Source: Klebsiella phage N1M2
Direction: 5' to 3' (one strand)
Sequence record: MN642089.1
Length of the DNA stretch: 64,000 nt
Position numbers and translations under genes: made by a program. This document shows, piece after piece, positions 5,374 through 56,225 of this stretch. Numbering within the stretch: position 1 is the first letter of the stretch; the number at the start of each line of letters is the position of its first letter. The notes beneath the pieces were generated by a model. It saw nothing but the letters and a program-made list of their open reading frames with translations, was not told the origin of the DNA and made no database searches.

Positions 5374-6597
5374 ATGTCTCTTAAGAACGTTTTCGCTTCT
5401 ATCGCTGGTCAAGAATCTGCAGATCTGGATCCGGCACTGGCTGGTATCGTTGAAGTAACCGCTGAAGAAGCAGCAGAAGCAGTGATCGATAAAGAAATCG
5501 CTGAAACTGAAAAATGCATCGCTGAACACGATCACGAAATCGAAAAGCATGAAGATGCTATCGAAGCGATCGAAGAAAAAGTTGAAGAACTGGAAGAAGT
5601 AATCGAAGGCATGGAATCTCAGATGTCTGGTTCTACTCCGTTCAACGCTGGCCTGTTCGCCCACCAGTACGCTCAGGGTGCTAAGATCGTTGCTAAGATG
5701 GGTGCTCCGGTTGAACTGCACGGCGCTGAAAGCTATGCAGACGCTTCTACCGCTAACCTGAACGCTCTGGCTGGTGTTGAGTCCATGAAAGAAACTGCTG
5801 TTAAAGCTGCTGCAGCTGCGAAGAAATTCTTCGTTGAACTGTACAACGGCTTCATCGCAGTTGTTACTGGTCTGTTCAACCGCTTCAAAGGCATCGAGAA
5901 GAAAGCTGCTAACCTGAAAGCTCAGGTTGCTGGTAAAGATGCAGACGCTATCAAAGGCGAAGTTACCCGTACCGGTTCTATGCGTTTCGTTGATGCTAAC
6001 GGTCATGCGCCGAAAGTTGTTGATGCTATCGTTGAAGCTGGTAACACCCTGGCTGCAACCATGGACACCATCAACGCAGGTGGCGTAGTTGACGGTATCG
6101 ATCGTGTTATCGATAAACTGGCTAAGATGGGTACCAAGAAAGTAAACGGCGACGTCGTTGAAATCCACATCAATGGTGGTGTAGTAGCTATCCACGCTCC
6201 TAAAGATGACGCTGATCTGCCTAAAGTTTCTCTGTCTGTTAAAGGCAGCGGTGAAGCTGCTAAAGGTCAGAAACTGGGTAAACCAGCTCTGGAAGCTCTG
6301 TGCAACGAAGTTGCTAAAGACGCTAAGAAACTGCAGATCGCTAAATTCGACAGCCGTGCTCTGACTGCTTCCCGCGACAAAGCTATCGCTCAGATGGAAA
6401 AACGTGGCGCAGAGAAAGACGAAGATCGTAAGAACGTCAAATCTGGCGTTGCTGCAATCAAGAACGGCCATCGTGCTGGTATGAAACTGATCCGTGGCGC
6501 ATTCGGCCTGGCAGGTGACGTACTGGACGGTCAGCTGGCGTTCGTTAAAGCTCACCTGGGTGGTGCCGCTAAGAAAGAAGAAGAAAAAGCTGAGTAA
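5374..6597 (+). CDS. very highly expressed acidic coiled-coil / Ala-Lys-rich protein, 407 aa; head-scaffold-like candidate
   Basis: Near-perfect optimal codon usage. RBS AAAAAGGT followed by ATGTCTC is shared with the gene at 17802. N-terminal acidic helical segment (EEAAEAVIDKEIAETEKCIAEHDHEIEKHEDAIEAIEEKVEELEE) then A/K/G-rich body. Strong terminator follows. Function is inferred only. Confidence 0.8.
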   Translation: MSLKNVFASIAGQESADLDPALAGIVEVTAEEAAEAVIDKEIAETEKCIAEHDHEIEKHEDAIEAIEEKVEELEEVIEGMESQMSGSTPFNAGLFAHQYAQGAKIVAKMGAPVELHGAESYADASTANLNALAGVESMKETAVKAAAAAKKFFVELYNGFIAVVTGLFNRFKGIEKKAANLKAQVAGKDADAIKGEVTRTGSMRFVDANGHAPKVVDAIVEAGNTLAATMDTINAGGVVDGIDRVIDKLAKMGTKKVNGDVVEIHINGGVVAIHAPKDDADLPKVSLSVKGSGEAAKGQKLGKPALEALCNEVAKDAKKLQIAKFDSRALTASRDKAIAQMEKRGAEKDEDRKNVKSGVAAIKNGHRAGMKLIRGAFGLAGDVLDGQLAFVKAHLGGAAKKEEEKAE

Positions 6598-13527: not shown

Positions 13528-14166
13528 ATGGAACTAGAACGTTACACTTTTCTTCGCAATGAACTCCGTAAAATGTACACCATTCTTACTGAGCAAACTT
13601 TTATTGTTTCAATTCCACTAAGTTCATTTATGACACTTAAGCAATTGGACAGAGCGAAGAACAATCCGCCGTTGACGGGATTTGAAACGTATGAGACTGC
13701 AGTGGAACGTCCTTTCACCGTCCAGCGTATTTTGCAAGCAGTAGAGATCATGGGGGATGACCTTCAAATTGGTTTCCGCAATGCCCGTCAGGATATCCCC
13801 TTCCTCTACAACACCATCCAAACATGGATTCAGTATTGGATTGAAATTAAAAGAGATATTGGTTACTTAAGAACACCAGACTTAAGTGAGCTAGAACTCA
13901 TTGAGAGACTCGCTAAGCACTTGTTTAGTGCGTATGCTCACTACCACTATGAGAAGATCAATAAAACGCTTGGTGTTGGTCATAGCGGCGAAATGACACT
14001 TCTTGATGCACTTCGTGGTAGAATGATGTTTGGTACTGATATGGATGAAGGACTATCATTCATTTCCCATGTTGACGAATACCGTTCATTGACAGGTCAA
14101 ACTGGTGGTGCTGGAATGTCCTTCGGTAGTGCAAGTGGATTGCTTCAAGGACTTGGAGGTCTTTAA
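13528..14166 (+). CDS. hypothetical protein, 212 aa (Gly-rich C-terminus)
   Basis: RBS AAGG upstream. Clean ORF. Confidence 0.65.
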   Translation: MELERYTFLRNELRKMYTILTEQTFIVSIPLSSFMTLKQLDRAKNNPPLTGFETYETAVERPFTVQRILQAVEIMGDDLQIGFRNARQDIPFLYNTIQTWIQYWIEIKRDIGYLRTPDLSELELIERLAKHLFSAYAHYHYEKINKTLGVGHSGEMTLLDALRGRMMFGTDMDEGLSFISHVDEYRSLTGQTGGAGMSFGSASGLLQGLGGL

Positions 14167-15509
14167 TGTTAGCTACACAGATTCAAGCTTTCTTAAAGCA
14201 AGCTAAATCCACAGCTGACTATGCCAACAACGCAGCTAGTACAGTTACCATGACTGCTGTGTTTATAACTCCTGAGGGCCAATATACGGCCCTAGGTGTT
14301 GAAAGGTTTATGGAGTATGGGGATTTCGTAAATAACCGCTCAGATGTTATTCAGATTCGCGTAAGGTTGCAACCAGGAATCTACTTTAACAAGATCGTCC
14401 CTTTCCGTGATGATTTAACTGTTCAGGTATTTGTGGATTCAGAAAGTGATCGTGTTTTGCGTGAGTTTGTTGGGGTCCCTCTTGTTTCCACTGACGTAAG
14501 AGCTGAGGGGAACAACACAGCTGCTGTTAATATAGATGGACTCAATGATACCAACCTGGTTCCCTATGAGTTCCAGTTGATGTCCCGCGGCTTTGCTAAA
14601 TTGAAAACGATACCTGTTTCCAATATTTATCAAATGGGAACTATTGGGGATGTTATCGCTACTGCCATGGAAACTTATTCTGCACAAGCAGGGTTAACCG
14701 GGTGGGATGCTTACAAAGGTATGCAATTCCATCAACCTATCGATAACACTAACCGTTATGACTCTATAGAGATTCCCAATGGAACGAAACTCATTAACGT
14801 TCCTGTCATACTTCAGAATGATAACGATTATGGTGTTTATACCAAAGGTCTTTGTTGTTACTATAAACAAAACTATTGGTGGGTTGTTCCCTTGTATAAC
14901 ACTGAGCTTGTGGAAACACATCCAAGACCGTTAGATATTATCAGAGTACCTGAAAATAAAATACCTGATCTGGATGCTACATTCTATCGATCCAATGTCG
15001 CTATGACAATCATTGCTTGTGGTAAAGCTACGCACACTGATAATGCGGATATCGATAAACAGAACGAAGGTGTTGGTCAAAGATTAGTTATGGGTGACGC
15101 TATTGCCGGTGATACAGGTTATCACTATAACAATGGTCGTGCCATTACAACTCGTGCAGATACTGTTCAGGAATATAAATTAAGTAACCGTAGAGATGGT
15201 GATCAGTGGATACCACTAAACCAAGCACCAACTGGAAACCTTTGTGTACCTCTAACACAGAACGCCATAAACGAAGGTGAGATCATCGAAGTGGAGTGGC
15301 GCAATGGAGATGTGGGTTATTTAGAGCCAGGGCACCCTGTACGTTATCAATACATGTACAGTGATAGTGAGATGATGGTCAGACGTGGAGTCCTATTAGG
15401 ATACCGTACAGACTACATACCAATCACTAGCTATGCAAAACCAATGCTTAAAAGAACTACTATTTTAAAACTGTTTGTTAAACGTCGTTCTGAATTTAAA
15501 GTTGATTAA
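14166..15509 (+). CDS. hypothetical protein, 447 aa
   Basis: TAATG stop/start overlap with the upstream gene. Confidence 0.7.
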   Translation: MLATQIQAFLKQAKSTADYANNAASTVTMTAVFITPEGQYTALGVERFMEYGDFVNNRSDVIQIRVRLQPGIYFNKIVPFRDDLTVQVFVDSESDRVLREFVGVPLVSTDVRAEGNNTAAVNIDGLNDTNLVPYEFQLMSRGFAKLKTIPVSNIYQMGTIGDVIATAMETYSAQAGLTGWDAYKGMQFHQPIDNTNRYDSIEIPNGTKLINVPVILQNDNDYGVYTKGLCCYYKQNYWWVVPLYNTELVETHPRPLDIIRVPENKIPDLDATFYRSNVAMTIIACGKATHTDNADIDKQNEGVGQRLVMGDAIAGDTGYHYNNGRAITTRADTVQEYKLSNRRDGDQWIPLNQAPTGNLCVPLTQNAINEGEIIEVEWRNGDVGYLEPGHPVRYQYMYSDSEMMVRRGVLLGYRTDYIPITSYAKPMLKRTTILKLFVKRRSEFKVD

Positions 15510-15515
15510 CAACTA

Positions 15516-15547
15516 CTAGAACTAGGGGCACCAGCCCCTAGTTCTAG
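15516..15547. terminator. bidirectional hairpin terminator between convergent genes
   Basis: ctagaactaggggc-acca-gcccctagttctag, a perfect 14-bp stem, lies between + gene end 15509 and - gene end 15558. Confidence 0.7.
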
Positions 15548-15557
15548 ATTATCTTAT

Positions 15558-17096
15558 TTAGATGTCGTCAAAGTCTGAGCCACCGCCCATTGCTTCACTT
15601 CTGTGTGCTAATGATTTACGATAAATCTTTTTATCAAAGTTAATATCATGAACAAGACCATTAACAGGGTCTAATGGATAGATACCGAAACGACTACTTT
15701 CTTGAGCACCTTCACCACGCATCTTACCAACGTAATAAGTAAACCAACATTCGTTGTTTTGAAGTTTAGCTACATGCAGACCGATTACACAGTCGACTTC
15801 GTTAGTAAGTTTAGTACAACCTTCAGTCATTGACTTACCGCCAACATCACGGATGAAGTAAATCTCTGAATCATCATCTTGTTCACGGATGAATTTCTTA
15901 GCATCCGGGTTAAGCTGGTGAGGAGTAAGGAAAGCTGCACCACGAGAGGTAAAGAAGTTACGAGCACGGTTATACAGGTTCTGTAGTTTATCAGAACGTG
16001 ATTCACCTTGACAGCCAGTTAAGTCTGCCATTGCCAGATAGTCATATGCACCAACAATGATTTCATGACCTTTCAGTTCTAATGTGCGAACACGTTGCAT
16101 GATCTCATGGATATTATCGTGAGATGGGTTAACGCGATAGAATTTGAAAGACCAACCATTCTCATCAAAGGTATCGATAATTGTAGATACAACTTCATCT
16201 GTAGTTGCTTCGAAGAAGTTAGGCTTAGTACCAGTCTTAGCAGTAACGAACAATTCGTACATACGTTTAAAGATCAGACCTAAGCTATCCTCAGCAGACA
16301 TTAATACAACAGTTGGAATCTTGGACTTATTACGAAGAACCGGTTTGTTGTATAACGGAACAGATGCGATGAGGTGTGCAAGACCAAATGACTTACCGCG
16401 GTTAGTCAGTGCTTCGATCATGTACATCAAGCCACGACGTAGACCGCAGTCAGGATATAAAGCTTCGTTAAGACCAGCTAAGCCAGTTTTGATAATACCT
16501 TCTGGAGAAGTCTCAACTTTAAGTTGATCAATAACTGTCTTGATGCCATCAGGGTTATCAGAACCAGTAGCTTCAACAACAGCCTTATCGAATGTATTAT
16601 CATTCAGGTCAGCAATCTTTTCATTAATCAGTTCGTTGATCTTCATCCAATCATCTTTGGAGAGATCATCTTCACCTTCAAACAAGAATGGACGAACCAT
16701 ACTTTTGAATTGGAACGCGAACTTGTTACTTGTTGCTACATCACGCAGCTCTTTAATAATTTGGAAGATTAGCTGTCGCGAGTCTTCATTACCCAAATCT
16801 GATTTAAAAGCGTCTGTGAGTAGTTTCTCAAGTTCAGGAGAAAGGAGAATAATCTCAGTTAACTTAGGGGTCAACAGTGATGTTATGATATTAGAGTCAT
16901 TCGGTTGCTCTCTAAACCACCCCAGTAATTTGCGGAGCAGAGCTTCTGTTTTCTTGTCTTGTTGAACTAGACTTTCTTTACTCTTAGGAACGTCCTCAGA
17001 TAACAAAAGGATTTCATCCATTAAATCTTTGTCATCTAAACGCCAAGCTTGGAACATTGCTTGTGCAAGTTTGACGAGACGAATCAGGTTGTTCAT
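15558..17096 (-). CDS. DnaB-family replicative DNA helicase, 512 aa
   Basis: Walker A EALTNRGKS at aa 228-236 (DNA 16390-16415), i.e. central as in DnaB. H2-like IIVGAYDYLAMAD and H3-like LTPHQLNPDAKK (compare DnaB SQLNR) are present. Acidic C-terminal tail. Confidence 0.6.
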   Translation of the reverse strand: MNNLIRLVKLAQAMFQAWRLDDKDLMDEILLLSEDVPKSKESLVQQDKKTEALLRKLLGWFREQPNDSNIITSLLTPKLTEIILLSPELEKLLTDAFKSDLGNEDSRQLIFQIIKELRDVATSNKFAFQFKSMVRPFLFEGEDDLSKDDWMKINELINEKIADLNDNTFDKAVVEATGSDNPDGIKTVIDQLKVETSPEGIIKTGLAGLNEALYPDCGLRRGLMYMIEALTNRGKSFGLAHLIASVPLYNKPVLRNKSKIPTVVLMSAEDSLGLIFKRMYELFVTAKTGTKPNFFEATTDEVVSTIIDTFDENGWSFKFYRVNPSHDNIHEIMQRVRTLELKGHEIIVGAYDYLAMADLTGCQGESRSDKLQNLYNRARNFFTSRGAAFLTPHQLNPDAKKFIREQDDDSEIYFIRDVGGKSMTEGCTKLTNEVDCVIGLHVAKLQNNECWFTYYVGKMRGEGAQESSRFGIYPLDPVNGLVHDINFDKKIYRKSLAHRSEAMGGGSDFDDI

Positions 17097-17801: not shown

Positions 17802-19979
17802 ATGTCTCAAGAACAATCCAAGAACTTCCATTTCATCACCTCTAAATCTGGTGCTGATCTTAAAGCGATGATCAACGGTTTTGCAACCAACCCATCTGTA
17901 CACACTGGTAAAGATCTGGGCCTGGAAAGCATCGTTGGTAAAGAGTCCATGTCTCCGACTCTGCGTAACTTTGAAAAAGGTATGGGCTTCAACCAGCGTA
18001 ATGCTGTTAGCTCTGCTATCAGCGGTATTGCTAACTTCAACCAGCGCGCTCAACAGCTGCAGGACATGATCAAACACGGTGGTATGGAATCTTTCTCCAT
18101 GCAGCTGGATCAAGGTGCTGTTGCTCGTCAGAAAGCTGCTACCATCGACCTGAACGCCCGTTCTAACCGTCAGTGGGCTGCTGCTGAAGCTCTGTTCCCG
18201 ACCCTGGTTGTTCCTTACGATCAAGAAGCTCTGGTTCTGCCAATCGACATCGCTGGTGTTGGTGCATATAACAGCTCCGGTAACGCTAACGAAGCTTGGG
18301 AAGATCTACGTCCGATCGCTTCCGTTCTGGCTGACTCCACCTTCAACGCTGGTGACGACCTGAAACTGGTTCCGGTTCTGCCTGCTAACCCTGCTGATGC
18401 AAACACCGCTATGTTTGTTCCTTCAGCTGATTGGGCTCCGTGGGATGCTACTTATGACACTAACGACCTGCTGGGCCGTGAAACTCATAAAACCAACTAC
18501 CTGGCTATTCGCAAAATCAACAACCTGCTGAGCCTGTGCCGTGCTCCTGGTGCTGCTCCGTTCGAGCAGAACGATGAAATCGAAGCTTCTTCGATCCGTC
18601 TGCAGTCCCTGCTGTTCAAAGTTAAAACCAAAGATGGTGAAGGCTTTGTAACTCTGGACACCGAAAACATGGCTGGTGTTGCAGCTCGTCCTTCTACCGG
18701 TGTTACTTCCGATGAAAAACGTCAGATCAACTTCGTTCTGAACGGCATCAACGTAACCAACCTGAAAGACAAAGATGGTAAAGCTACCGAACTGTTCAAG
18801 TCTCTGACCGACGCTGGTCTGAAAGTATTCCTGAGCTTCGAACTGAGCGCTACCTATAGCCGTTCTACCCGTAGCTGGTCTCCGACTGTTTCTCCTGTTG
18901 CTATCGCTTACGTGATCAACAAAGACGGCGACAAACTGGTCCCAGGTACTCCAGGTATGCCAGAAGACATCACCAACCTGATCACTGCTCAGGCACTGGA
19001 AGCTTCTATCCACGGTATCCTGCTGAAACTGAACCATGCTAACACCAACCGTAGCCGTTACGGTACTACTGTTGTTTACGCTAACACCGTTAAGTCTTAC
19101 AACATCAACCGTCGCCAGCCGATCTCCGTTAAGTATCCGATGCTGAACGAAGATAACAACGCTGACGTTCTGGCAATGCTGGTTCAGCAGATGGACGTAA
19201 TGGTTACCCGTAACATGTCTCACGATGCATTTAAAGCGGCTAACATCCACTTTAACTACGTCTACGACAACAACGGTATGAAGATCGTTAACATCAACGA
19301 CGATTCCTCTTCTGTCCTGCCTGGTCAGCACTTCCTGGGTACCACTGGTATCGAAGCGAAACTGAACCTGGTTAAAGAAGTATCTACTCTGGATAGCAAA
19401 GATACTCGTGATAACATCGAAGCAACTCTGGTCAACAAGATCTATGACGTGATCACTGCGCTGCGTGTTAACTCTAACATCTCTGCTCTGAAAGAACTGG
19501 ATAACCGTCCTGAGTCTTACACCATCGTAGCTCACGCTGCTCTGGCTCCGTTCCTGATGACCACCGGTGACTACCGTACCTTCGGTGAAAATGTTAAGTT
19601 CAACATCGTTGAAACTAACATCAGCTCTGAAGTAGGTCGTATGTGGATCGTTCCGACTTCCATGACCAAAGAAGGTTCTGTTGATATCTTCGGTGGTATG
19701 GGCGTCTGTGTAGCTAAAGAACTGCTGGTAATCGAAGGTTCTGTAAACCAGGCCGATCGTCAATACCGCATGATCATCACTCAGCCTGCATACCAGCACC
19801 ACCCGCTGTGCCCAGTTGTTGGCCGTGTGACCATCGAAGACATCCAGGATCTGCTGGGTGACGAAGGTCTGATCACCAAGGTGAACAAACACCTGGCTGA
19901 AATCAGCGGCAAGATTGCTGTTGACAACGGTACTACTGGTACTGGTAAAGAAGTTGCTATCGAAATCCCTAAAGGTTAA
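17802..19979 (+). CDS. major virion protein, 725 aa; most likely major capsid protein of jumbo-phage type (tail sheath not excluded)
   Basis: Extreme optimal-codon bias over 2.2 kb. 116-bp AT-rich leader. RBS and ATGTCTC start context shared with the gene at 5374. Strong terminator follows. The size fits the 700-750-aa major capsid proteins of jumbo myoviruses. No motif-level proof. Confidence 0.85.
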   Translation: MSQEQSKNFHFITSKSGADLKAMINGFATNPSVHTGKDLGLESIVGKESMSPTLRNFEKGMGFNQRNAVSSAISGIANFNQRAQQLQDMIKHGGMESFSMQLDQGAVARQKAATIDLNARSNRQWAAAEALFPTLVVPYDQEALVLPIDIAGVGAYNSSGNANEAWEDLRPIASVLADSTFNAGDDLKLVPVLPANPADANTAMFVPSADWAPWDATYDTNDLLGRETHKTNYLAIRKINNLLSLCRAPGAAPFEQNDEIEASSIRLQSLLFKVKTKDGEGFVTLDTENMAGVAARPSTGVTSDEKRQINFVLNGINVTNLKDKDGKATELFKSLTDAGLKVFLSFELSATYSRSTRSWSPTVSPVAIAYVINKDGDKLVPGTPGMPEDITNLITAQALEASIHGILLKLNHANTNRSRYGTTVVYANTVKSYNINRRQPISVKYPMLNEDNNADVLAMLVQQMDVMVTRNMSHDAFKAANIHFNYVYDNNGMKIVNINDDSSSVLPGQHFLGTTGIEAKLNLVKEVSTLDSKDTRDNIEATLVNKIYDVITALRVNSNISALKELDNRPESYTIVAHAALAPFLMTTGDYRTFGENVKFNIVETNISSEVGRMWIVPTSMTKEGSVDIFGGMGVCVAKELLVIEGSVNQADRQYRMIITQPAYQHHPLCPVVGRVTIEDIQDLLGDEGLITKVNKHLAEISGKIAVDNGTTGTGKEVAIEIPKG

Positions 19980-20014: not shown

Positions 20015-20054
20015 CCTCCTACCTCACCTTCGGGTGGGGTAGGGGGTTTTTGTT
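20015..20054 (+). terminator. rho-independent terminator
   Basis: cctcctacctcacc-ttcg-ggtggggtagggg (about 14-bp stem) followed by gttttt. Confidence 0.8.
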
Positions 20055-20083
20055 GTCTATTGAAAATAACTTCTAAAAATGTT

Positions 20084-20113
20084 TAGGCAGATATTATCTA
20101 CTTGTAAACGTAT
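20084..20113 (+). promoter_or_regulatory. candidate phage promoter motif AGGCAGATATTATC-N3-TGTAAA
   Basis: TAGGCAGATATTATCTACTTGTAAACGTAT lies 29 nt upstream of the GTG start at 20142. The same 14-mer and spaced TGTAAA recur at 56158-56190. Confidence 0.45.
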
Positions 20114-20141
20114 GATCGTTTATAAACAAGAGGATATATAA

Positions 20142-21230
20142 GTGGCTAGAGTTAGTGGTGATAATTGGCATCACGGCTGGGACACTCCATATGTCGAAGG
20201 TATTGAATATTTCAACTATACTGACTTTGATATCACTGTGACTGATAAGTTAGGTGTAGAGTGTGAGATATTGCGATCTGACGAACGCCCTGCAAGGTTA
20301 GAAGACCGAGGTAAGGTGATTGTTAGGATTACTCGCTTAATCGATCCTAGACGTGTTAGAGTCCCAAGTACTGATGCACAACTTGCAGCCGATAGAATGT
20401 ATCTTGAATCTTTCAAGGAAGCTGTCGAGAATGCAAGTAAAAATAGGATAGGGATTTATGAATCTGAACATAATCAGATCAGAGTTACGTGTCAAGCAGA
20501 AATTCGGTTAGACTTCTATCTTCAGAATACCGTTGTTAAATCCAACCTGTTGGGGATTACTGTCCGTGCAACGAATAATGTCGTTGATAAATCGCACGGT
20601 AACACACCAGAAGGATATATCAATGATGTCATTCTGAATGAATTAAAGGATGCCGATGAACAAGCGGATGAAGGGCAGGATAAAGGTATCCGAACTTTAT
20701 TCTCCGCTAGATTAATTGATAACCATAATCGGGTCGGTACTTTATGGACCACAGGGTTCGGTGAAGTGACCAGGATTATCCCAGTAAAAGATGAGGAGCA
20801 AGCAGAAGGGCTATATTTAGCCGGTGGATTAGGATTACAACATAAAGAATTTATTCCAATTGAAGAACTCATTCAACCCAAAAGAATGCTGGGACTGAAT
20901 GTTCATCGTACTGAAATAGATGCCAGGAAATTTGGCTTAGGAGAATATACCATTTCGGTTATGACCGAACGAGATAAAATTAGAAAAGAATGTAAAGATC
21001 TACGTACTGAAAACAAGAAGCTTGCTAGTAAAGTGGATGACTTGGAAAACAAGATCAGTATCGAAAAGATCAATAAGGCCCATGGTGATTTTAAACACAC
21101 AGTCTCTATGGAATATATAAAAGAAAACAACGTTAATAATGCTTTAGGTGGATTTTCGAGGTTAGTTTCTCTCGTCGTGTCCAACATTAAAACATTTATA
21201 AGCCTTGCTTCTATACTAAGAGCGATGTAA
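20142..21230 (+). CDS. hypothetical protein, 362 aa (GTG start; C-terminal coiled coil)
   Basis: RBS AAGAGGA 8 nt before GTG. Clean ORF. Confidence 0.6.
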   Translation: MARVSGDNWHHGWDTPYVEGIEYFNYTDFDITVTDKLGVECEILRSDERPARLEDRGKVIVRITRLIDPRRVRVPSTDAQLAADRMYLESFKEAVENASKNRIGIYESEHNQIRVTCQAEIRLDFYLQNTVVKSNLLGITVRATNNVVDKSHGNTPEGYINDVILNELKDADEQADEGQDKGIRTLFSARLIDNHNRVGTLWTTGFGEVTRIIPVKDEEQAEGLYLAGGLGLQHKEFIPIEELIQPKRMLGLNVHRTEIDARKFGLGEYTISVMTERDKIRKECKDLRTENKKLASKVDDLENKISIEKINKAHGDFKHTVSMEYIKENNVNNALGGFSRLVSLVVSNIKTFISLASILRAM

Positions 21231-21242
21231 CTAGGAGTTAAA

Positions 21243-22937
21243 ATGGATCCACAATTTCTGAAGAAAGTGAGAAAGCAACGCGGAGGCTTTACTCAAGCTT
21301 TAGTTGATGGGTGGCATAAAAAGGACATGGACAGGATTGTTCCACACCTGACCAAGTGCTTTGAAAATATGTTCAGGTCTCTACAGGAAAAGGGCTATTA
21401 TTTCGATGGGATTGAGGAAGTGTGTCCTCTTGAGTTCTATAACTCGATCACTCGTTCTAGTAGTAGTGGGACCAAGGATTTTGAAATCGCCAAGAACAGT
21501 TTCTTTGGAGTTCGTATCAAGAACCATTTCAAAGATCCTGTAACTGGTATTGAATCAGAATTAAAATGCCCTCTGATGTTCTTACCTTATACCAATATCT
21601 ACGGTGACATCTATACACGTAACTCCACATATTCCATGCAATATGTGTTGTCTGAACGTGGTCCTTCTGTTGATGGTGGTCGTGACAAAACCATTTTCAT
21701 CAGGGTGTTGGGTTATAAGTTTAAAGTAACTAAAGAGATCCACACATTTAACCGTGTATTCCGCAGTGGAAACAAAGTTAATACTGGTGCGATCAATATG
21801 ACGCTTCCAGCTAACCGTTTCTATAACTCCAAAAATGATCGCAAGATCACCAGTAAGAAAGTTCCAATTCCATTACTGGCCTGGTACGTGTTTGGTAAAT
21901 ATGGATTCACACACTGCATGAAACAATTTGCAGAATGTGATTACATGATCGACACCTTAGACACTCTGCTCGATATTTGTCCAGAGTCTGATGGTTGGCA
22001 GATCTATTCCAACACAGGTTGCATTCATCCAAAAGCATTCGATCGCCCTAAAGGCGCTCCGCTGTTAGATGAACCAGCAATTGCGATTAAGAGCATTAAC
22101 AAAGGTGGTGAAATCTCCAACCTTGCACTGCAATATACCGCAGGGCTGTTGTTCATGTTTGGTGTCTTCAGTCACGAATTAGATATTCGTCGTCTGGATG
22201 ATATTAACTATTGGCGTCTGATCATTGGCAGGTGTTCTATTCGCCTACCAGCTAAAACTCTACCTGATGTTTATCTGCGTCAGATGAACGAGCACTTCAG
22301 CTCTGTAGAGGAATATGCTGATGACATCACCATCGACAAGTATAATAAGTTTGACATTGAAGTTCGTGACACTTATGAGTTACTGAACTATCTCATGATG
22401 AACTATTCTAACTTGATCAAACTGTATGACCCTGCGAACATGCTTCATAAAGAAGTAGCCTCTATGGAATTCATCGTCGACTTCCTGATTCACCAGGCGA
22501 ACGACTTTAAGTTCATGATTCGTAATAAAAGTAATATCACGCCGAAGATTATCAACCGAGAACTAGACGCTCACTTCCGTCTGTTTAATGCTGATAAATC
22601 CGTACGCGAAAATAACACCATACTCGAACAGACTGGTACCGATAATCCATTCATCGACTATGGACTGGGAATTATCCTTCAAACCAAATCCACCGTTAAC
22701 CGCGGTCCTGGTAAGAAGAAGGAAGAATTTGATCCCAACCATCCCGGTAGTATCATCCACGCATCTCAGCCTTTTGTTGTGTCTTATCAGTTCTCTACTA
22801 AACCTAACCCAGATGCTCGTGGTTTCTTCCAACCGCGTGTTCACTTGGATCAGGATAAGTATACTGGTTTAAGACCTGAAGACAGGGCGTTGTATGAAGC
22901 TACTGAACACAGACTTAAGTTTAGAGAAGGTAAATAA
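21243..22937 (+). CDS. hypothetical protein, 564 aa
   Basis: RBS AGGAG 6 nt upstream. Clean ORF. No polymerase or RNAP motifs found by eye. Confidence 0.7.
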   Translation: MDPQFLKKVRKQRGGFTQALVDGWHKKDMDRIVPHLTKCFENMFRSLQEKGYYFDGIEEVCPLEFYNSITRSSSSGTKDFEIAKNSFFGVRIKNHFKDPVTGIESELKCPLMFLPYTNIYGDIYTRNSTYSMQYVLSERGPSVDGGRDKTIFIRVLGYKFKVTKEIHTFNRVFRSGNKVNTGAINMTLPANRFYNSKNDRKITSKKVPIPLLAWYVFGKYGFTHCMKQFAECDYMIDTLDTLLDICPESDGWQIYSNTGCIHPKAFDRPKGAPLLDEPAIAIKSINKGGEISNLALQYTAGLLFMFGVFSHELDIRRLDDINYWRLIIGRCSIRLPAKTLPDVYLRQMNEHFSSVEEYADDITIDKYNKFDIEVRDTYELLNYLMMNYSNLIKLYDPANMLHKEVASMEFIVDFLIHQANDFKFMIRNKSNITPKIINRELDAHFRLFNADKSVRENNTILEQTGTDNPFIDYGLGIILQTKSTVNRGPGKKKEEFDPNHPGSIIHASQPFVVSYQFSTKPNPDARGFFQPRVHLDQDKYTGLRPEDRALYEATEHRLKFREGK

Positions 22938-22940
22938 GAA

Positions 22941-25352
22941 ATGACTATGAACAATGGCCCACAAGTATTAACTGGTCGTAACCCTCAGACTCAAACCCTG
23001 ATGGGTAATCAACAAAATGGTAACCTGGGTGGGCAGCCCCAGCAACCACAAATACAGCAAAACAATAACCCACTTGCTCAGCTGGCAGGTTTCTCTGCTA
23101 AGATCGCAGGTCAGGTTAATAACCCTAATAGTCAGACAAGTTTGTATTCCACTGTAACTTCCCGTAACAACTATGCACATCTGTTGTGTCTGGAAGATAA
23201 CGCAGCCGAAGAACAAATGAAAGCGCAAGCATTGGCAGATGCTGGCAACCTGGCTACTAACATCTTTAATATCTGTGCACGTCGTATTGTTCAGAACCCG
23301 TTCTATCGTGTTCACTGTGCGGCTAAGGAACGTTTCAAGTCCCCACGTAAAAATCTTCCACCTGATCAAACTCTGAGTGCGTTTATCGACGAGATCGATA
23401 GTAACCAGATTCTGTATCAATTCATCCTGGCAAACGTCTCCATTATGTTCACCGCAGAATTTGCAAACGCAATCATGCGTGGTGATGAGCGTGTGCGTAC
23501 CGATCGTGCTGTTGTAGATGATATGTATTATCGTTGTACTATCGATGCAATCTACATGCAGTATTTCGATTTCCTGGCGCAGCATCCAGATGGTTCCCAG
23601 ATTTATTATAACGCAGCTCCAGTTGTTAAGGAAGTGTTGAATGATCTTGAACCAAAACTGTATGACATGGTCCTGAGCAAGTTTACTTTTGTAAACGTTC
23701 AATGTCCATGGCGTAAAGGTCGTCTGGGTGAATTGCAACAGCGCTCTACTCAGTCTAATCCATTGTTGGATAATTCCAATATCATGGATATGGGTTTTGC
23801 TGGGACTTATTATGATCCTAACTATAATCCAAACATGGCTGGACTGGCAGGTCAGACTAATGATGCTGGTCTGCGGGAGCTTCAGGAATATGTCCGTCAG
23901 AAAGCTGCAGGTTATACTCCTAAGCCACAACAGCCGACAGAGGAAAACCGTATCCTGCAAACTACTTATGGCGGGTATGATCAGCCAGAACTGAAACTGG
24001 AAGATATGACTCGTGAGAACCGCCTGCGTTATTCGCTGGATAAATGGGGTTCTCAGATTCCTGGTACTGAGTGGTGGGTGATGCGTGAGAAGGACGTGGT
24101 TCACTTTGCTCGTGTTATGGATATGGATGATGGCATTCCATTCCGTGTTCGTGATACACGTTGTGTAGGAACTGTTCCTGTATATCGTTTCAACTGGCAG
24201 AACGGTACATTTAACTTCCGTCTTGTTAAACATAAACTACAGGCATTTGATATCATGGGAACTTTGATCAGTAATCCTGATAAACTGTTACCGTACATGT
24301 ATGAAGAAGATGGTGTTCAGAAAACTACTTTCGATCCAACCATTCTGGAAACTAGCAAGTTCGTAAATGAAGGACATGTTATCCCAGTTGGTGAAATGAA
24401 AGAGCTGGAGAAAGAACCTGATATTCTGATCGGCAACAAACCGATGAAAGCTAATCAGGGAAATGAACACATCCTGAATCGCATGGACGTTATTACTCAA
24501 ACTTATGATCCAAAGAACAAACTGGACGCATTTGTAATGCCGATGGTTATTACTCGTGAATGGCAGATGGATTCCCATGTTAATATGGATCGTTTCTATT
24601 CCCAGTTCCGTGTAATGGTTCAAGGTAATACTGCTGGTATGGATGATACCATCCAGGTACTGCGCAGCATTCGTGCAGCATATAACGAATGTGAAGACCA
24701 AGAATTTAAAGATTTCATTAAACCATATATCACCAACCTGGTTAACCGTTATCTGATCGAAGTTCGTGGTTATGCAGAAACCAAACAAGAATCTATCGAT
24801 TCTGGTGTGATCTGTTATCTGAAGTCTTCCGACATCTTTGAAGATCTGGAAGATTGGATTGAATGTCTGAAAAACGACGACCTTCCTACTCTGCGTGCTT
24901 TTGCTGACTATCGTTTCAATACTTTCATGCGCATGGGTATTGAAGTTCTGTGTGGACCAGAACAAGTAAAAGAAGAGTATCAAGAAAAATATGGTAAAGA
25001 CGATGATGAGATCTTTGTGGCTGCAATGCTGAAGTCTGCAGAGAAAGCAGTAATCATCAAACGTAACACCGTGTTCTTCAATCTCCGTAAACAACCAGCC
25101 CCACATACCGTAGAAGCAATTACCATTAAAGAGTCAGTAAACCCAGAACTGTTTGCAATTATCCGTGAAGCTACTCGTATCACAGCGAAACACTTCAAAG
25201 ATACTCCGCAAATCCTGGTACGCTTTGAAACCGATTCCGGTAACAAAGTCTTTACTGTAACTCCAAGTGGTTTCGATCCAGAATCCGTAGTGACCTTACG
25301 CCCTGTTGATGCAGGACAAACGTATTGCCACCCATATCCGATTGTGGACTAA
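22941..25352 (+). CDS. hypothetical protein, 803 aa, with Q/N-rich low-complexity N-terminus
   Basis: Starts 3 nt after the upstream stop. The first ~70 aa are Q/N/P-rich (QQNGNLGGQPQQPQIQQNNNP). No NADFDGD or other RNAP motifs. Confidence 0.7.
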   Translation: MTMNNGPQVLTGRNPQTQTLMGNQQNGNLGGQPQQPQIQQNNNPLAQLAGFSAKIAGQVNNPNSQTSLYSTVTSRNNYAHLLCLEDNAAEEQMKAQALADAGNLATNIFNICARRIVQNPFYRVHCAAKERFKSPRKNLPPDQTLSAFIDEIDSNQILYQFILANVSIMFTAEFANAIMRGDERVRTDRAVVDDMYYRCTIDAIYMQYFDFLAQHPDGSQIYYNAAPVVKEVLNDLEPKLYDMVLSKFTFVNVQCPWRKGRLGELQQRSTQSNPLLDNSNIMDMGFAGTYYDPNYNPNMAGLAGQTNDAGLRELQEYVRQKAAGYTPKPQQPTEENRILQTTYGGYDQPELKLEDMTRENRLRYSLDKWGSQIPGTEWWVMREKDVVHFARVMDMDDGIPFRVRDTRCVGTVPVYRFNWQNGTFNFRLVKHKLQAFDIMGTLISNPDKLLPYMYEEDGVQKTTFDPTILETSKFVNEGHVIPVGEMKELEKEPDILIGNKPMKANQGNEHILNRMDVITQTYDPKNKLDAFVMPMVITREWQMDSHVNMDRFYSQFRVMVQGNTAGMDDTIQVLRSIRAAYNECEDQEFKDFIKPYITNLVNRYLIEVRGYAETKQESIDSGVICYLKSSDIFEDLEDWIECLKNDDLPTLRAFADYRFNTFMRMGIEVLCGPEQVKEEYQEKYGKDDDEIFVAAMLKSAEKAVIIKRNTVFFNLRKQPAPHTVEAITIKESVNPELFAIIREATRITAKHFKDTPQILVRFETDSGNKVFTVTPSGFDPESVVTLRPVDAGQTYCHPYPIVD

Positions 25353-26533: not shown

Positions 26534-26622
26534 AATAATGGCCTGAGATTCAGTTGAAAGAAATTTCAGGTCTATATCATCTAAGTGTATAAGACAATAA
26601 ATATTTATACATGGAGATCTAT

Positions 26623-27285
26623 ATGTCTCGTAATATCAAATACTTAGGTTCTAACTGTAAACCGGTAACAACCGAGACTGTAGAATCTAAACAAACAAAT
26701 CAATTAAACTCTAGTAAGGAAATCAAAATGGAAAACGTACAAACTGCAGCTATCGAACTGAACACCACTGTTGAAGCAGTAGAAACCGCTCAACCTGAAA
26801 CCATCGAAGTTACCGCACCTACCAACAACCAACCTGTGGAAGAGAAAGACATGAACATCGAAACTAAAGAAGACAAACTGAAAGAAGCCGCGCAGATCGC
26901 TTCCGAAGTCAGAACCCGTAATGTTAACTGGCACGCTGTATCTGCATCAGCAGTAATTGCCGGCGTGGCTGTGGGCTCTCGCCTGATCGTTGAAAACAAA
27001 ACCACTGAAGAAAATCACAGTGCTCTGGAAATCGTAGGTCGCGTAGCAGCAGTATCAACTGTTGCTGCTGGTATGAGCTTCGTTACTCAGAAGCTCGCTC
27101 CTTCCATTGCAAATAACGACAGCTATAACCTGATGACCACTGCAACAATTGCAAATGGTCTGAGTGTAGCTGACGCATTCTTCGGTGATGACCTGGTTGC
27201 CATGATGAATGGCGCGGGTGCTAAGGTTACTGAAACTGTAACCGAAATGTTCAACAAAGAAGAAGCAGCAGAACTGGAAGCATAA
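26623..27285 (+). CDS. acidic Ala-rich protein, 220 aa, high-expression codons
   Basis: GGAG sits 7 nt before the ATG at 26623. The track start at 26611 lies inside the RBS. Optimal codons through most of the gene. Confidence 0.65.
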   Translation: MSRNIKYLGSNCKPVTTETVESKQTNQLNSSKEIKMENVQTAAIELNTTVEAVETAQPETIEVTAPTNNQPVEEKDMNIETKEDKLKEAAQIASEVRTRNVNWHAVSASAVIAGVAVGSRLIVENKTTEENHSALEIVGRVAAVSTVAAGMSFVTQKLAPSIANNDSYNLMTTATIANGLSVADAFFGDDLVAMMNGAGAKVTETVTEMFNKEEAAELEA

Positions 27286-27347: not shown

Positions 27348-30234
27348 ATGATGACCAGAGATCGTCACCGGTAGCTTTAAGATCACCACCAAGATCCGCA
27401 TCTAAGGTTTCTGTTTCTGCATCTGTCAACTCAGCTTGTCCTTCCTCTTTTTGTTCCTGAGGAGTTTCTAAGCCAGTTTCATTATCAGCGTTAGCTTCCA
27501 GGTCTTCATCCAGACTTACTTGAGCTGGATTTTCATCAAGAATAGGTTCTTCTTCTCCTGGCATTGTTTCATCAACACCGGCATTGAACTTATCTTGTTC
27601 TTCTTTCTCAATCTTATCTTTCAGCTTCTCAACTTTAGTCTCAGTCTTCTTACCAGACTTATGGTAATCAGCCAGGAATTTAACAACGTTAGCATCAAGA
27701 TCAGATGCCTTGTTAATGATGTTGAGAATACCACCTGCTTGACCATTGCTAAGGATATCTTCAAACGGCATTGGAAGATTAAAGCGAGTGAAAGCTTCAT
27801 TAAGCAATACAGCTTTAATGGATTCGATGATAGCTTCACCATCAAGTCCAACTTCTTCAGCACGTTTACGAAGCATCTTAGAACCACCACCCAACTCAAC
27901 CCAAGTAGCAGCCAGTTTTTCAACTGCTTCAATCTTGTCTTCAAGTTTGTTAAGGGAATCGGTGATTGCAGGAGTAGGAAGTACAACATAGAAGGTATTC
28001 ATGAAGTCTTTCAGAACAACACGAATAATATCCATTTCTTCTGGAGAGATATCATCATCCCCATCAGTGTTAACTTTCTCTTTAACTTCGTCAGTAATAT
28101 CCAGAGCGCCTTGGTCTGGTTTCATGTACAGCTGTTTGTTTTCTTTAATGATGTCAACCAACTCACCAATGAATGGTTCATTGACGCGCATATGTTTACG
28201 CATGATGTCAGTAAAGTAACGAGAGAATGTACGAGAATAATCGTTAGTTTGGTTACGGAGTAATTCCTGGTCAGCAAGAGCTTCAATAGCGAAGTCATTA
28301 CCCTCACCAGTATCTTCCAGCCAACTACGTTTCAGACCGAAGTAACCTGCAATGGTATTTAACAAGTTATCACGAGTATCGCGATCGATAGACTTGAGAG
28401 GTTCACGTTGCATTTGACCAGCTTGGAAATCAGGAGCAGCCACATATGGGTTATCACCTGGGTTAACCTTAATGGTCAGTGTCTGTTCTTTAAAACGGTC
28501 GAGAACAGCATCAATGGAAACGTTGTTATAACCAATGATATCATGAAGTGTCGGGTTATTAGCGAACCACTCATCACGAGCCATGGCAATGGTGTTACGA
28601 ACATCAATATCTTCACGTTCAGGAGTAATCTCCAATAACGTATGAGAAATGGAGTTCTCTACCTGAGCCAGAGCATCAGCAGTATCAAGTACAGCCAAAC
28701 GAGTAATGTGAAGTTTAGCTTCATCAACTAATGAACGACCAGTACCCAGACGGTTAAAGTCAATAGCGACATAGGTAACATAGTCAGAAGGAATGAATAC
28801 CGCACGAACACCTTGATCACGCATAGCACGAGACCAGAAGAGTTTCTTGTTTTCCTCAGTCAAGGAAATGGTAACATCCTTATGAAGATCACCGTTGATA
28901 AAACCTTCGATCAGTTCTTTCTCAAGAGTAGCTGATGCGAAGTTAACCATCCACTCCATATCTTCATTACACTCAGAACCCTGAGCGACGTTTCGGATAT
29001 GTTCAACGATATCGTTGATAGATCCCATCTTAGGACCATTGGTATCTTGTTCAGCACCTTTGGTCTTCTGATAGAACTTAACGTCAGAGGTAGATTTAAG
29101 TGGTTCACCAGTTTCTGGATCAAGCAGGAAGATATGACCGAATGGTTTACCAATCTCACCGTTGATGTTTACAGGAATAGCTGCTTCAGAAGGCCAGTGG
29201 TAATCAATACCAATACCACGACCATCACCAGTGTAGTATTTACCTTTACGAACAGATAAGGTTTCATTCTTATCGTAATGACGATCTGGATAAAGTTCAT
29301 CCAGCTCTTGTTCTAAGGTTTTTCTGGAAACGGCATTAACGTGGTTGTTGTTGGTCTTGTGGCGTTTTCCTTTCTCTTTAGTCCAGCGGTTATTGATAGC
29401 GTCATCAATACCTTCCAGACCACTGATCTTCTTAAGACGTTCTTCACGTAACTTAGAAGCCAGTTCACCAACTTTAAGAACAACCGGGTTATCAGTAAAA
29501 GTAAACTTAAGCGATGGATGAACGAGATTATATTCTGGTTCCCTTTCACCAACACCACCGTATAAAGCCTCAAAGCCTACAAAGCTACCAGCAGTGTTTT
29601 TCTTTTCTTTGCGGATATAACCAACGTTCTTAGCCTTGTTCCAATCACCACCAACAAACTGATCATTAAGAATGTTCATGGTGGTGGCTTTGATTGCAGA
29701 TTCTTGACCAGCAACATCTACTTCCATACCGTTAATCAAATGGTCGAGAGCAGCATGAGACAGACTTAAATGGACATAAGAACCAGTGCGGAAAAGAACA
29801 TCTTTAATAATTTGAGGCGCTAACTCTTCAAAAGGGTATTTTGTTGTAAAGTAATTTTCAACTTTAGTCAACAATAACTCATGAAGCTTACTGTTTTTGA
29901 TATCAGAACTTTCTGTATCATAGATGAGAAGGTTTCTCTGATCACCGTTAGGTTTCAGCAGAAGGGTAGTCCAGATCTGTTCAGCGCGTTTGATAAAGTG
30001 AGTAATGGTACGCAGGTCATTATTGGCCTGAATGTTATTACTGATAATATCAGAGAGGTTCTTTACCTTAGCCACAGGAGGCTTGGATTTATTCTCTCTA
30101 TCTTTATCATTACGAATAGTGCTATCTTTTACTAGCAAAGAACGCATACTTTTGTCTAAAGGAGACAGGTTATTTAATCTGCCTCTTACTTTAGCCCTGT
30201 CGATCGGTTTTACCCCTTTGGGTAATCTAGACAT
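27346..30234 (-). CDS. large protein, 962 aa, with highly acidic C-terminal tail; portal or internal head protein candidate
   Basis: Clean 2.9-kb ORF. No Walker A or polymerase motifs. The last ~90 aa are D/E/T-rich. Function is speculative. Confidence 0.75.
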   Translation of the reverse strand: MSRLPKGVKPIDRAKVRGRLNNLSPLDKSMRSLLVKDSTIRNDKDRENKSKPPVAKVKNLSDIISNNIQANNDLRTITHFIKRAEQIWTTLLLKPNGDQRNLLIYDTESSDIKNSKLHELLLTKVENYFTTKYPFEELAPQIIKDVLFRTGSYVHLSLSHAALDHLINGMEVDVAGQESAIKATTMNILNDQFVGGDWNKAKNVGYIRKEKKNTAGSFVGFEALYGGVGEREPEYNLVHPSLKFTFTDNPVVLKVGELASKLREERLKKISGLEGIDDAINNRWTKEKGKRHKTNNNHVNAVSRKTLEQELDELYPDRHYDKNETLSVRKGKYYTGDGRGIGIDYHWPSEAAIPVNINGEIGKPFGHIFLLDPETGEPLKSTSDVKFYQKTKGAEQDTNGPKMGSINDIVEHIRNVAQGSECNEDMEWMVNFASATLEKELIEGFINGDLHKDVTISLTEENKKLFWSRAMRDQGVRAVFIPSDYVTYVAIDFNRLGTGRSLVDEAKLHITRLAVLDTADALAQVENSISHTLLEITPEREDIDVRNTIAMARDEWFANNPTLHDIIGYNNVSIDAVLDRFKEQTLTIKVNPGDNPYVAAPDFQAGQMQREPLKSIDRDTRDNLLNTIAGYFGLKRSWLEDTGEGNDFAIEALADQELLRNQTNDYSRTFSRYFTDIMRKHMRVNEPFIGELVDIIKENKQLYMKPDQGALDITDEVKEKVNTDGDDDISPEEMDIIRVVLKDFMNTFYVVLPTPAITDSLNKLEDKIEAVEKLAATWVELGGGSKMLRKRAEEVGLDGEAIIESIKAVLLNEAFTRFNLPMPFEDILSNGQAGGILNIINKASDLDANVVKFLADYHKSGKKTETKVEKLKDKIEKEEQDKFNAGVDETMPGEEEPILDENPAQVSLDEDLEANADNETGLETPQEQKEEGQAELTDAETETLDADLGGDLKATGDDLWSS

Positions 30235-51914: not shown

Positions 51915-52910
51915 TTATTGCGGTCCGGCAGAAGTATCACCACCAGATTTAACACCACCGTGTCTGTGACCAAGATAGGAAATCCCACCAATAGTCCAGT
52001 CACCTTCAGATGTACCAGTACCACCTTTCTGACTAAATCCACCATCAAGAGATTGATTACCTTTAATGGTGTAATTACCAGTCTGTTCGTAGTTACCGGT
52101 TTGCTTAGTGTTACCTTTGTGTGTGATGTCGCCTTCTATCATAATTGTTGGAGACTTCCAAGTAGTTGTCTGTGTTTCAATTGCGATAGAGTTATCAGCT
52201 TTGATCTTCAAATCTTTACACTGAAGATCTACATTGTTTTTGCCCTTTAACAACATACTGTCTTCACAGGACATTGTGATATTCTTTTTCTCAATATTCA
52301 AGAATGATTTTTCTTCATTGATAAATGAGAAGGCATGATCCATAGAGTTAATAGAAAGAATATTATTCTCACCATCCACTATACCAAATTGACCATTCCC
52401 TGTATCGAGAGAAAGACAATATGAAGTAGGTTCCCCATTACCTTGACCAGTAACTAACTGGATCATTTTTTTATGGGAAGATATCATGAATATGTAGTAG
52501 TTATCCGGTGTTACTGGGGTATTCGCATCAACATTGGGAGAAGAGGAAAATGCATAAATAACAGTTTCAAGTCTGAGGGTTCCGTCCATACCGAAATAAG
52601 TCCAACGGTATTTAGACTGACCCACAAACTTATAGACAACTACCTTACTACCATTTCTAACATCGGGTGCTGTCACACGGTTCGTATTCAAAGCCAACCA
52701 TGTCGCAGGAACTGTGTTAGAACTTAAAGTTGTACTGGAGCTGGTATCTCCTGTAGGTGTTCTGGTTGTTACGGTTTGTGTTTGGGTTTGGGTCGTGACC
52801 TCACCATCACCCTCAGGAAACATTGATGGGATATAAACTTGTATCTCATCAGTATTAGTTTCCTTATCCATAGCAACAATGCCGACACCCAGGCATTCTA
52901 ATACATTCAT
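51915..52910 (-). CDS. baseplate central spike protein (gpV/gp5-like), 331 aa
   Basis: C-terminus is Gly/Thr-rich beta-strand repeats ending LGHRHGGVKSGGDTSAGPQ. HxH near the tip resembles the iron-binding apex of P2 gpV-type spikes (DNA about 51950-51965). Confidence 0.5.
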   Translation of the reverse strand: MNVLECLGVGIVAMDKETNTDEIQVYIPSMFPEGDGEVTTQTQTQTVTTRTPTGDTSSSTTLSSNTVPATWLALNTNRVTAPDVRNGSKVVVYKFVGQSKYRWTYFGMDGTLRLETVIYAFSSSPNVDANTPVTPDNYYIFMISSHKKMIQLVTGQGNGEPTSYCLSLDTGNGQFGIVDGENNILSINSMDHAFSFINEEKSFLNIEKKNITMSCEDSMLLKGKNNVDLQCKDLKIKADNSIAIETQTTTWKSPTIMIEGDITHKGNTKQTGNYEQTGNYTIKGNQSLDGGFSQKGGTGTSEGDWTIGGISYLGHRHGGVKSGGDTSAGPQ

Positions 52911-55450: not shown

Positions 55451-56008
55451 ATGAAAAAGCTTTTCCCACTCGCCAATAAAGAAACTCGTTCTCTGTTCGT
55501 TCACCCATCCATTTGTCAGGCATGGGAAATTGGTAGCGAGCATGAAGGTTATGGCCCAGAGCACGAAACCAGTTTCCTGAAACCTGGATTGGTTCCTAAC
55601 CTGGCTAAGCTGTGTAAACCTGATAATGTTTACTTCACGGTAACCGAGGAACCTAATCCAGATACCATGACCATTGATGAACTCCTTATCGGGATCAAAG
55701 ATAAAGAAGGATTCTGGCATAATGTAACACTGTCCAACCTGGAAGTTAAGTTAGAACGTCTTAATGCAGCTCAGTGGGGCATTGATGGCGTTGTTTCTGT
55801 TCCAGTAGATGAAGACCTCACTTGCCGATATGATGGTACCTATATCCATTTGGGCGAAACCAAAGTTATCAACGTTCCTATCAAACTTCGTTATGACCGT
55901 GCTACTCGTGCTCTGTCTTTCTCCAGTCCTATCAGTTATGACGTCGAAGGAATGGAACTTTTAGGTATGGTTCTCGATATTGACTGGCGTGACGCTAAAT
56001 CAGTATAA
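55451..56008 (+). CDS. hypothetical protein, 185 aa
   Basis: RBS AAGGAA upstream. No phosphoesterase (Mre11/SbcD) motifs. Confidence 0.6.
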   Translation: MKKLFPLANKETRSLFVHPSICQAWEIGSEHEGYGPEHETSFLKPGLVPNLAKLCKPDNVYFTVTEEPNPDTMTIDELLIGIKDKEGFWHNVTLSNLEVKLERLNAAQWGIDGVVSVPVDEDLTCRYDGTYIHLGETKVINVPIKLRYDRATRALSFSSPISYDVEGMELLGMVLDIDWRDAKSV

Positions 56009-56017
56009 TACATGATA

Positions 56018-56065
56018 CCCCTCAGACTTCCTAGGTGAAAGCCTAAGAGGTCTGAGGGTTTGGTA
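56018..56065 (+). terminator. terminator hairpin
   Basis: cccctcagac...gtctgaggg outer stem with an inner imperfect helix, followed by tttggtaat. Confidence 0.55.
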
Positions 56066-56157
56066 ATATGATTTATTGTTTGTTTCAATACTTTGCTAAC
56101 ACACAGCGTATACGCCGTCTAACAACGGTTGTATAACTTTATTACTGTCACATATTT

Positions 56158-56190
56158 TCAGGCAGATATTATCATTATGTAAAAGTAAAA
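56158..56190 (+). promoter_or_regulatory. second copy of candidate promoter motif AGGCAGATATTATC-N3-TGTAAA
   Basis: TCAGGCAGATATTATCATTATGTAAAAGTAA lies 36 nt upstream of the ATG at 56226. 14/14 identity to 20086-20099, with TGTAAA at the same spacing. Confidence 0.45.
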
Positions 56191-56225
56191 CTTTTATTCT
56201 TTTTAACAACTTATAGGTAATAAAA

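Follow-up and report, generated by a model that had tools for sequence, protein, structure and literature searches.

Introduction

What is the function of a short sequence that recurs, letter for letter, ahead of two unrelated genes in the genome of a bacteriophage, and which RNA polymerase would read it? The question is raised by a stretch of phage DNA of 64,000 nucleotides, here called the window, whose positions are counted from its first letter. A first-pass annotation had noted two copies of the 14-mer AGGCAGATATTATC in it, each followed at a short distance by TGTAAA, each just downstream of a terminator and each upstream of a gene unrelated to the other. It implied a regulatory or promoter motif specific to the phage and different from the sigma70 consensus of E. 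coli.

Jumbo phages that encode RNA polymerases provide the background against which such a motif must be read. According to reviews, every one of them carries an A/T-rich motif of about 10 nt whose centre lies near -10, 5' of the early operons. This early motif is read by the virion polymerase, which is injected, and the early genes include those for the subunits of the second, non-virion polymerase. The polymerases of jumbo phages have no sigma homologue, and we found no account in the literature of how the virion RNA polymerase recognises its promoters.

Results and discussion

Source of the window and relatives used for comparison

Sequence similarity assigns the window to a phiKZ/OBP-like jumbo phage. 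It shares 90% identity with the Serratia phages vB_SmaM-Sureiya and Yubaba in the capsid region and 79% in a second region, and its capsid region is about 78% identical to those of Pseudomonas phage OBP and Shewanella phage SXP01. The records of OBP and of Yubaba, the close relative of the window, give the genus as Petsuvirus. Among the window genes, ORF 17802-19979 encodes a phiKZ-type major capsid protein (Pfam PhiKZ_MCP, E 3e-188) and ORF 21243-22937 a homologue of phiKZ gp123 (PHIKZ123; PDB 7OGP chain E, E 1e-9; phrog_2943 'polymerase', E 3e-151), which in phiKZ is a subunit of the non-virion RNA polymerase. Yubaba carries homologues of PHIKZ055, PHIKZ071 and PHIKZ074 and, at 149382-155338, additional genes that are RNA-polymerase-like by annotation. 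The capsid type and the polymerase genes together are those of a phiKZ-like phage with two multisubunit RNA polymerases. We took the census of the motif family in the complete Yubaba genome (assembled from six pieces), a relative 79-90% identical to the window.

The repeated 14-mer and the null expectation

Both copies of the 14-mer are present as described and lie on the + strand, at 20085-20098 (site 1) and 56160-56173 (site 2), in each case one position before the place first assigned to them. The gap between the 14-mer and TGTAAA (20103-20108 at site 1, 56178-56183 at site 2) was given as 3 nt and is in fact 4 nt, namely TACT at site 1 and ATTA at site 2. The downstream start codons, GTG 20142 and ATG 56226, agree with the ORF list. 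Between the last base of TGTAAA and the start codon there are 33 nt at site 1 but 42 nt at site 2, so that the range of 30-36 nt first given does not hold for both.

An identical pair of 14-mers is by itself unremarkable in 64 kb: about 57 such pairs were counted per dinucleotide shuffle, and a search of the window for the 14-mer with up to three mismatches returned 8 occurrences against 6.7 expected, which is no enrichment. Both figures are those that a functionless chance repeat would give. The same reading fails on the gapped match of 20 positions (14 + N4 + 6), which was seen in 0 of 30 shuffles, and on the conserved core AGATATTATYNNNNTG, which occurs twice in the window against 0.04 expected, with at least two copies in 0 of 100 shuffles. 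It fails again on the exact copies of that core in Yubaba and on the conservation of the sites at orthologous positions across genera. Statistics and conservation together refute the chance repeat, whose probability we put at practically nil.

The conserved unit and its genome-wide family

The Yubaba search and the weight matrix derived from it reveal that the 14-mer plus TGTAAA had been wrongly delimited as the functional unit. The conserved unit comprises an A/T-rich stretch, TTT-Y-A-R-R-Y, AGATATTAT-Y, four free bases and T-G, or TTTYARRY-AGATATTATY-N4-TG when written without the leading stretch, and the 14-mer is one variant of this larger family. The long match that first drew attention results from the AGGC and TAAA parts, in which two sites happen to agree at degenerate family positions. 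A separate subclass AGGC...TAAA was considered and dropped, because these positions (ARRY, and +2 to +5) are degenerate and a coincidence of two among about 25 sites is expected.

Exact copies of AGATATTATYNNNNTG number 13 in Yubaba, where base composition would predict about 0.2. Sixteen Yubaba sites were used to build a weight matrix, which at a hit threshold of 14.8 bits yields 26 matches in that genome, all on the + strand and all but one in annotated intergenic regions. In each of the 25 intergenic copies the conserved G precedes a + strand start codon by 9-78 nt, with a median of about 46. In Yubaba, the closest complete relative of the window, the element is a multi-copy one, confined almost wholly to intergenic DNA and oriented with the gene behind it. 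On the same matrix site 1 scores 37.8 bits, site 2 scores 35.7 bits and a third copy in the window scores 18.3 bits. Further copies, on whose existence the first-pass annotation had made its proposal depend, are found both in the window, as this weaker third member, and in Yubaba, as the 13 exact and 25 intergenic weight-matrix copies. The G exactly 6 nt past ATATTAT is invariant in six phages and present in nearly all family members. In the weight-matrix scan of the window, neither the major capsid gene nor any other structural gene has a copy ahead of it.

One further match, AGATATCATGAATATG at window position 52479 on the + strand (15.5 bits), lies within a - strand structural gene (51915-52910) and is conserved at Yubaba 49273. 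The likeliest reading is a false positive, an antisense start inside the gene being less favoured.

Outside the two genomes, IMG/VR was scanned with the 15-base pattern CAGATATTATCNNNNTGTA. Among the matches listed, most are single chance matches in unrelated contigs, and several per contig occur only in contigs of about 250-290 kb. Among the IMG/VR loci compared, none is closer to the window than Yubaba. A full-text literature search for AGATATTAT as a literal string returned unrelated papers only.

Site 1 lies between the capsid gene and a three-gene block

Site 1 and its surroundings comprise the following features.

20015-20056, + strand: intrinsic terminator of the capsid gene (17802-19979), with a 14-bp G+C-rich stem and a 4-nt loop at 20015-20046, then TTTTTGTTGT (T-run)
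20070-20088, + strand: predicted upstream part of the promoter, with an A/T-rich stretch, TTT at -22 to -20 and ARRY, here AGGC, at -19 to -16
20089-20098, + strand: core AGATATTATC at -15 to -6, with ATATTAT at -13 to -7
20099-20104, + strand: spacer TACT at -5 to -2, T at -1 and the predicted start G (+1) at 20104
20142-25352, + strand: block of three genes, ORFs 20142-21230, 21243-22937 and 22941-25352

The terminator that had been claimed just upstream of both sites is confirmed at this one, where it lies 38 nt away and folds with -27.4 kcal/mol (z -5.8). Its stem is kept in Yubaba, SXP01 and AH04 and carries compensatory changes among phages (CCTACCTCACC...GGTGGGGTAGG versus CCTACCCTGGGC...GCCTGGGGTAGG), which supports a functional hairpin.

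The upstream columns of the element are information-rich in the 16-site Yubaba alignment and have their counterpart in WWWWWTTTYARRY of the OBP and N1M2 consensus. The orthologous place, with capsid gene, terminator, motif and next gene, was aligned for the window, Yubaba, OBP, SXP01, Pantoea phage Survivor and Erwinia phage AH04. In these six phages of five host genera the core AGATATTATC is unchanged, as are TTTA, CAGATATTATC and the G six bases past ATATTAT; the spacer of four bases and the flanking sequence differ among them. The middle gene of the block behind site 1 is the PHIKZ123 homologue. ORF 22941-25352 falls in phrog_13213, and neither this ORF nor ORF 20142-21230 has a match in PDB or Pfam.

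Site 2 lies upstream of a lytic transglycosylase gene

56020-56057, + strand: stable hairpin past ORF 55451-56008 (-31.6 kcal/mol, z -5.7), with three T only after the stem
56150-56163, + strand: predicted upstream part of the promoter, ATATTTTC then AGGC (TTT-Y-A-R-R-Y), which fits the OBP consensus
56164-56179, + strand: core AGATATTATC, spacer ATTA, T at -1 and the predicted start G (+1) at 56179
56226-57035, + strand: gene for an SLT-domain lytic transglycosylase (Pfam SLT, E 1.8e-6, above cut-off)

At this site the terminator claim needs correction, the stable hairpin lying about 100 nt away and not being called by the terminator scan. Yubaba and four IMG/VR contigs, 260-271 kb in length, keep the site itself, with a free spacer. 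The product of ORF 56226-57035 also matches the transglycosylase family phrog_4067 (E 1e-43), its N-terminus looks on inspection like a signal peptide, and its Yubaba homologue is annotated as 'putative endolysin'. The ORF on the other side of the site, 55451-56008 (185 aa), has a sub-threshold Pfam match to positions 146-250 of the profile for the phiKZ major capsid family (E 4e-4; 19 bits, cut-off 27). This weak match could be due to chance or could mark a fragment of capsid origin.

A third, weaker copy

26558-26587, + strand: third family member, TTTCAGGT-CTATATCATC-TAAG-TG, with the matrix match at 26572-26587 (CTATATCATCTAAGTG) and the predicted start (+1) at 26587

This copy lies 5' of an ORF that starts at 26611 or 26623 and ends at 27285, and its Yubaba orthologue, at position 23511, lies 5' of YUBABA_00230. 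Its core deviates from that of the other two sites and reads ATATCAT. A predicted early promoter of AR9 can lose its activity through a single departure from the consensus, so the third copy may be inactive, and its activity as a promoter is uncertain.

The element matches a published promoter class

The motif class is already published, for OBP in 2012 and for N1M2 in 2020, and homologous motifs have been validated in phiKZ and AR9. The predicted OBP promoter, which derives from the 2012 OBP genome paper, is BSHAWWWWWTTTYARRYAKATATTATYWWADTG (PMC7058600, Table 2). The same table gives the predicted N1M2 promoter as TBYAWWWWWTTTCARRYAKATATTATYWAAGTGWA, with 31 copies, that of 201phi2-1 as ...TATATTACDWHDGTG and that of phiKZ as TATATTAC. 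The OBP motif was judged to be an early promoter from its location at the starts of early operons, which is a bioinformatic assignment (PMC7058600).

Both window sites (20082-20104 and 56156-56179) match the OBP consensus TTTYARRYAKATATTATYWWADTG (PMC7058600, Table 2). Over the stretch from TTT through TG, site 2 fits at 23 of 24 positions and site 1 has one or two mismatches; the orthologous site past the OBP capsid gene carries TTTAAGCAGATATTATCCTTATG, and the placement before operons is alike in the two phages. OBP differs in being another phage species with another host range, the nearest relatives of the window being Serratia phages. Its start sites are predicted, as are those of the window, which holds only three family members. 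Taken with the further copies, the match to the OBP and N1M2 early-promoter consensus bears out the original view of a promoter-like, phage-specific motif common to unrelated genes.

The N1M2 promoter shares with the window sites the core, the upstream TTTCARRY and the start region G-T-G-W-A. It also stands before the same kinds of gene, an RNA polymerase subunit and a lytic transglycosylase; the N1M2 motif precedes, among others, the genes for an RNA polymerase beta subunit and a lytic murein transglycosylase (PMC7058600). N1M2 is, however, distant at the DNA level, and its spacer is more constrained (WAAG) than TACT and ATTA of the window.

Mapped start sites come from other phages. The early promoters of AR9 have the form AAATATATATTAT-(6N)-G(+1), and the early transcripts accumulate despite chloramphenicol; in phiKZ and phiR1-37 the start likewise lies 6 nt downstream of the consensus. 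The mapped early promoters of phiKZ (TATATTAC, 28-32 copies) and AR9 resemble the window sites in having an A/T-rich core of about 10 nt with its centre near -10, a start 6 nt past that core, a T-rich stretch 5' of about -19, multiple copies and a placement before early operons, with the non-virion polymerase genes among their targets. They differ in that the phiKZ core is TATATTAC rather than AGATATTATY and that AR9 has uracil-containing DNA. Timing, chloramphenicol independence, independence of the host RNA polymerase and start sites were measured in those two phages, whereas the reading polymerase, the early timing and the exact start site of the window promoters are inferred by homology with them.

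We conclude that both sites, and with them the weaker copy at 26572-26587, are very probably early-class promoters read by the virion RNA polymerase, with starts at G 20104, G 56179 and G 26587. The starts are predicted from the arrangement of ATATTAT, then exactly six bases, then G, as in the AR9 and phiKZ layout.

Downstream genes and the choice between the two phage polymerases

The genes behind the element bear directly on which phage polymerase would use it. The motif stands before the operons of the PHIKZ123 homologue in the window and of the PHIKZ055, PHIKZ071 and PHIKZ074 homologues in Yubaba, where these lie in operons behind the family members at 211472 and 226530, and it is absent before the structural genes of the window. 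The scan of Yubaba found no motif copy before the late major capsid gene, nor before a 1446-aa RNA-polymerase-like gene that has no match to the non-virion enzyme.

The same promoter family might instead be read by the non-virion polymerase, in the middle or late phase, or by both phage polymerases. The gene at site 2 lends this some credit: a gene for an exported lytic transglycosylase looks out of place among early genes and counts against the early reading, and its relatives are annotated as endolysin. Site 1 lies in a neighbourhood of structural genes, and a review describes continuously expressed AR9 genes that bear early and late promoters together. The SLT transglycosylase gene looks like an exception to the rule of early function, but it has its parallel in N1M2 (PMC7058600). 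The middle and late promoters described in related phages also differ from the element. The phiKZ late promoter is TATG over the start site, with all four bases required; site 1 has CTTG there, site 2 has TATG, where Yubaba has CATG, and family members show AGTG, CGTG and CATG. The phiKZ middle promoters are weak and A/T-rich or have TACT near -22 to -24, and the AR9 late promoter, AACA-N6-TA/G, is unlike the window motif. Reviews hold, moreover, that middle and late promoters are not findable bioinformatically and that a strongly conserved motif is the early one. Finally, the genes for the subunits of the non-virion polymerase themselves lie behind the motif, which means that another enzyme must transcribe those genes first. 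We consider a middle, late or shared use of the element improbable, and favour early transcription by the virion polymerase.

Resemblance to host promoters

The original judgement that the motif does not have the sigma70 consensus needs qualification. No -35 element exists at site 1, yet the core does resemble the sigma70 -10 hexamer: TATTAT, at -12 to -7 from the conserved G, matches TATAAT at 5 of 6 positions, and in both systems specificity depends mainly on an A/T-rich -10 region. The sites could on this basis be '-10 only' promoters of the host RNA polymerase, with TATTAT as the -10 hexamer and G at -14, and site 2 contains a weak 9/12 sigma70-like match, CTGTCA-16-TATTAT. A sigma70 promoter in the full sense has -35 and -10 elements spaced by 16-18 bp; site 1 has no such match, site 2 has the 9/12 match only, and the information profile of the family shows no conserved -35 column. 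The window sites also lack TG at -15/-14. The conserved positions extend outside the sigma70 hexamer, to TTT at -22 to -20, RRY, A at -15, Y at -6 and G at +1, and the motif is common to phages of Pseudomonas, Shewanella, Serratia, Pantoea, Erwinia and Klebsiella. Infection by phages of the phiKZ type is, in addition, rifampicin-insensitive. Reading by the host polymerase is accordingly a very improbable account of the element.

Symmetry of the core

The core contains a near-palindrome, GATA-T-TATC, and might be thought an operator for a phage DNA-binding regulator, or else a signal in the leader RNA, rather than a promoter. The sequence GATATTATC is nearly its own reverse complement, a weak - strand match is found at 20090-20103, and small hairpins start directly past the motif. 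A symmetric operator would not, however, need the orientation that is observed, all 25 intergenic Yubaba copies pointing towards the downstream gene, and many members (AGATATTATT, CTATATTATT, ATATATAATT) have a broken palindrome, as do the phiKZ and AR9 versions. The symmetric operator was rejected on these two grounds, strict orientation and broken palindrome. The homologous motifs are, furthermore, mapped promoters, and Rfam holds no family that matches the site 1 or the site 2 region. There is scarcely any likelihood that an operator or leader signal accounts for the sites, and the early promoter remains the reading that we carry forward.

A model for early transcription from the window

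As an early promoter, the element would act at the very beginning of infection. A virion-packaged, multisubunit RNA polymerase would enter the cell with the injected DNA and read an element of about 30 bp, made up of the A/T-rich stretch, TTT-Y-A-R-R-Y, AGATATTAT-Y with its centre at about -10, four free bases and T-G. Initiation would take place at the G of T-G, in the window at 20104, 56179 and 26587, and would require neither the host polymerase nor new protein synthesis. At site 1, transcription would resume past the capsid-gene terminator, and a subunit of the non-virion polymerase would be made early.

The assignment is of immediate use for annotation, as it marks three putative early transcription units in the window and flags the ORFs within 20142-25352, ORF 26623-27285 and the gene for the secreted transglycosylase as genes that a nucleus-forming jumbo phage probably expresses early. 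The invariant TTTA, CAGATATTATC and G furthermore provide a compact list of candidate contacts for the virion RNA polymerase.

Hairpins at the predicted 5' ends and elsewhere

The predicted transcripts of all three window sites open with a small hairpin from +1.

20104-20123, + strand: hairpin at the predicted 5' end of the site 1 transcript, GUAAACG-uaugau-CGUUUAU, -5.5 kcal/mol
56179-56197, + strand: hairpin at the predicted 5' end of the site 2 transcript, GUAAAAGU-aaa-ACUUUUAU
26587-26610, + strand: hairpin at the predicted 5' end of the third-copy transcript, by folding prediction

The TGTAAA of the first description consists of T(-1), G(+1) and the 5' arm of the site 1 hairpin. This hairpin is kept in Yubaba, OBP and Survivor and absent in SXP01 and AH04; that of site 2, beginning at +1 or +2, is kept in all five orthologues checked, with a different apical sequence. 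When a 5' hairpin is defined by a folding energy of at most -2 kcal/mol and a first paired base at +1 or +2, 7 of the 26 Yubaba sites possess one against a shuffle mean of 2.3, a count of at least 7 being reached in 0.3% of 300 trials. The boundary is not sharp, similar counts being obtained when the start of the folded segment is shifted from -4 to +1. The signal is modest, the sequences are A/T-rich, and we treat the result as a lead only. That the G-TAAA part reflects a second, undescribed feature, a 5'-terminal hairpin in a subset of early transcripts, is a tentative idea that we think rather unlikely. If true, the hairpin could shield the earliest phage mRNAs from decay that depends on the 5' end or, alternatively, could influence initiation and escape by the virion polymerase.

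Hairpins of another kind, perfect or near-perfect palindromes with CTAG near the base of the stem, occupy short intergenic gaps at 15516-15547, 57371-57402 and 61096-61121. They are probably terminators, and the one at 15516-15547, which sits between the convergent genes 14166-15509 and 15558-17096, is possibly a bidirectional one. An exact inverted repeat of 18 nt, GCTGGTCAAGAATCTGCA and its reverse complement, occurs within coding regions at 5404-5421 and 29695-29712, about 24 kb apart.
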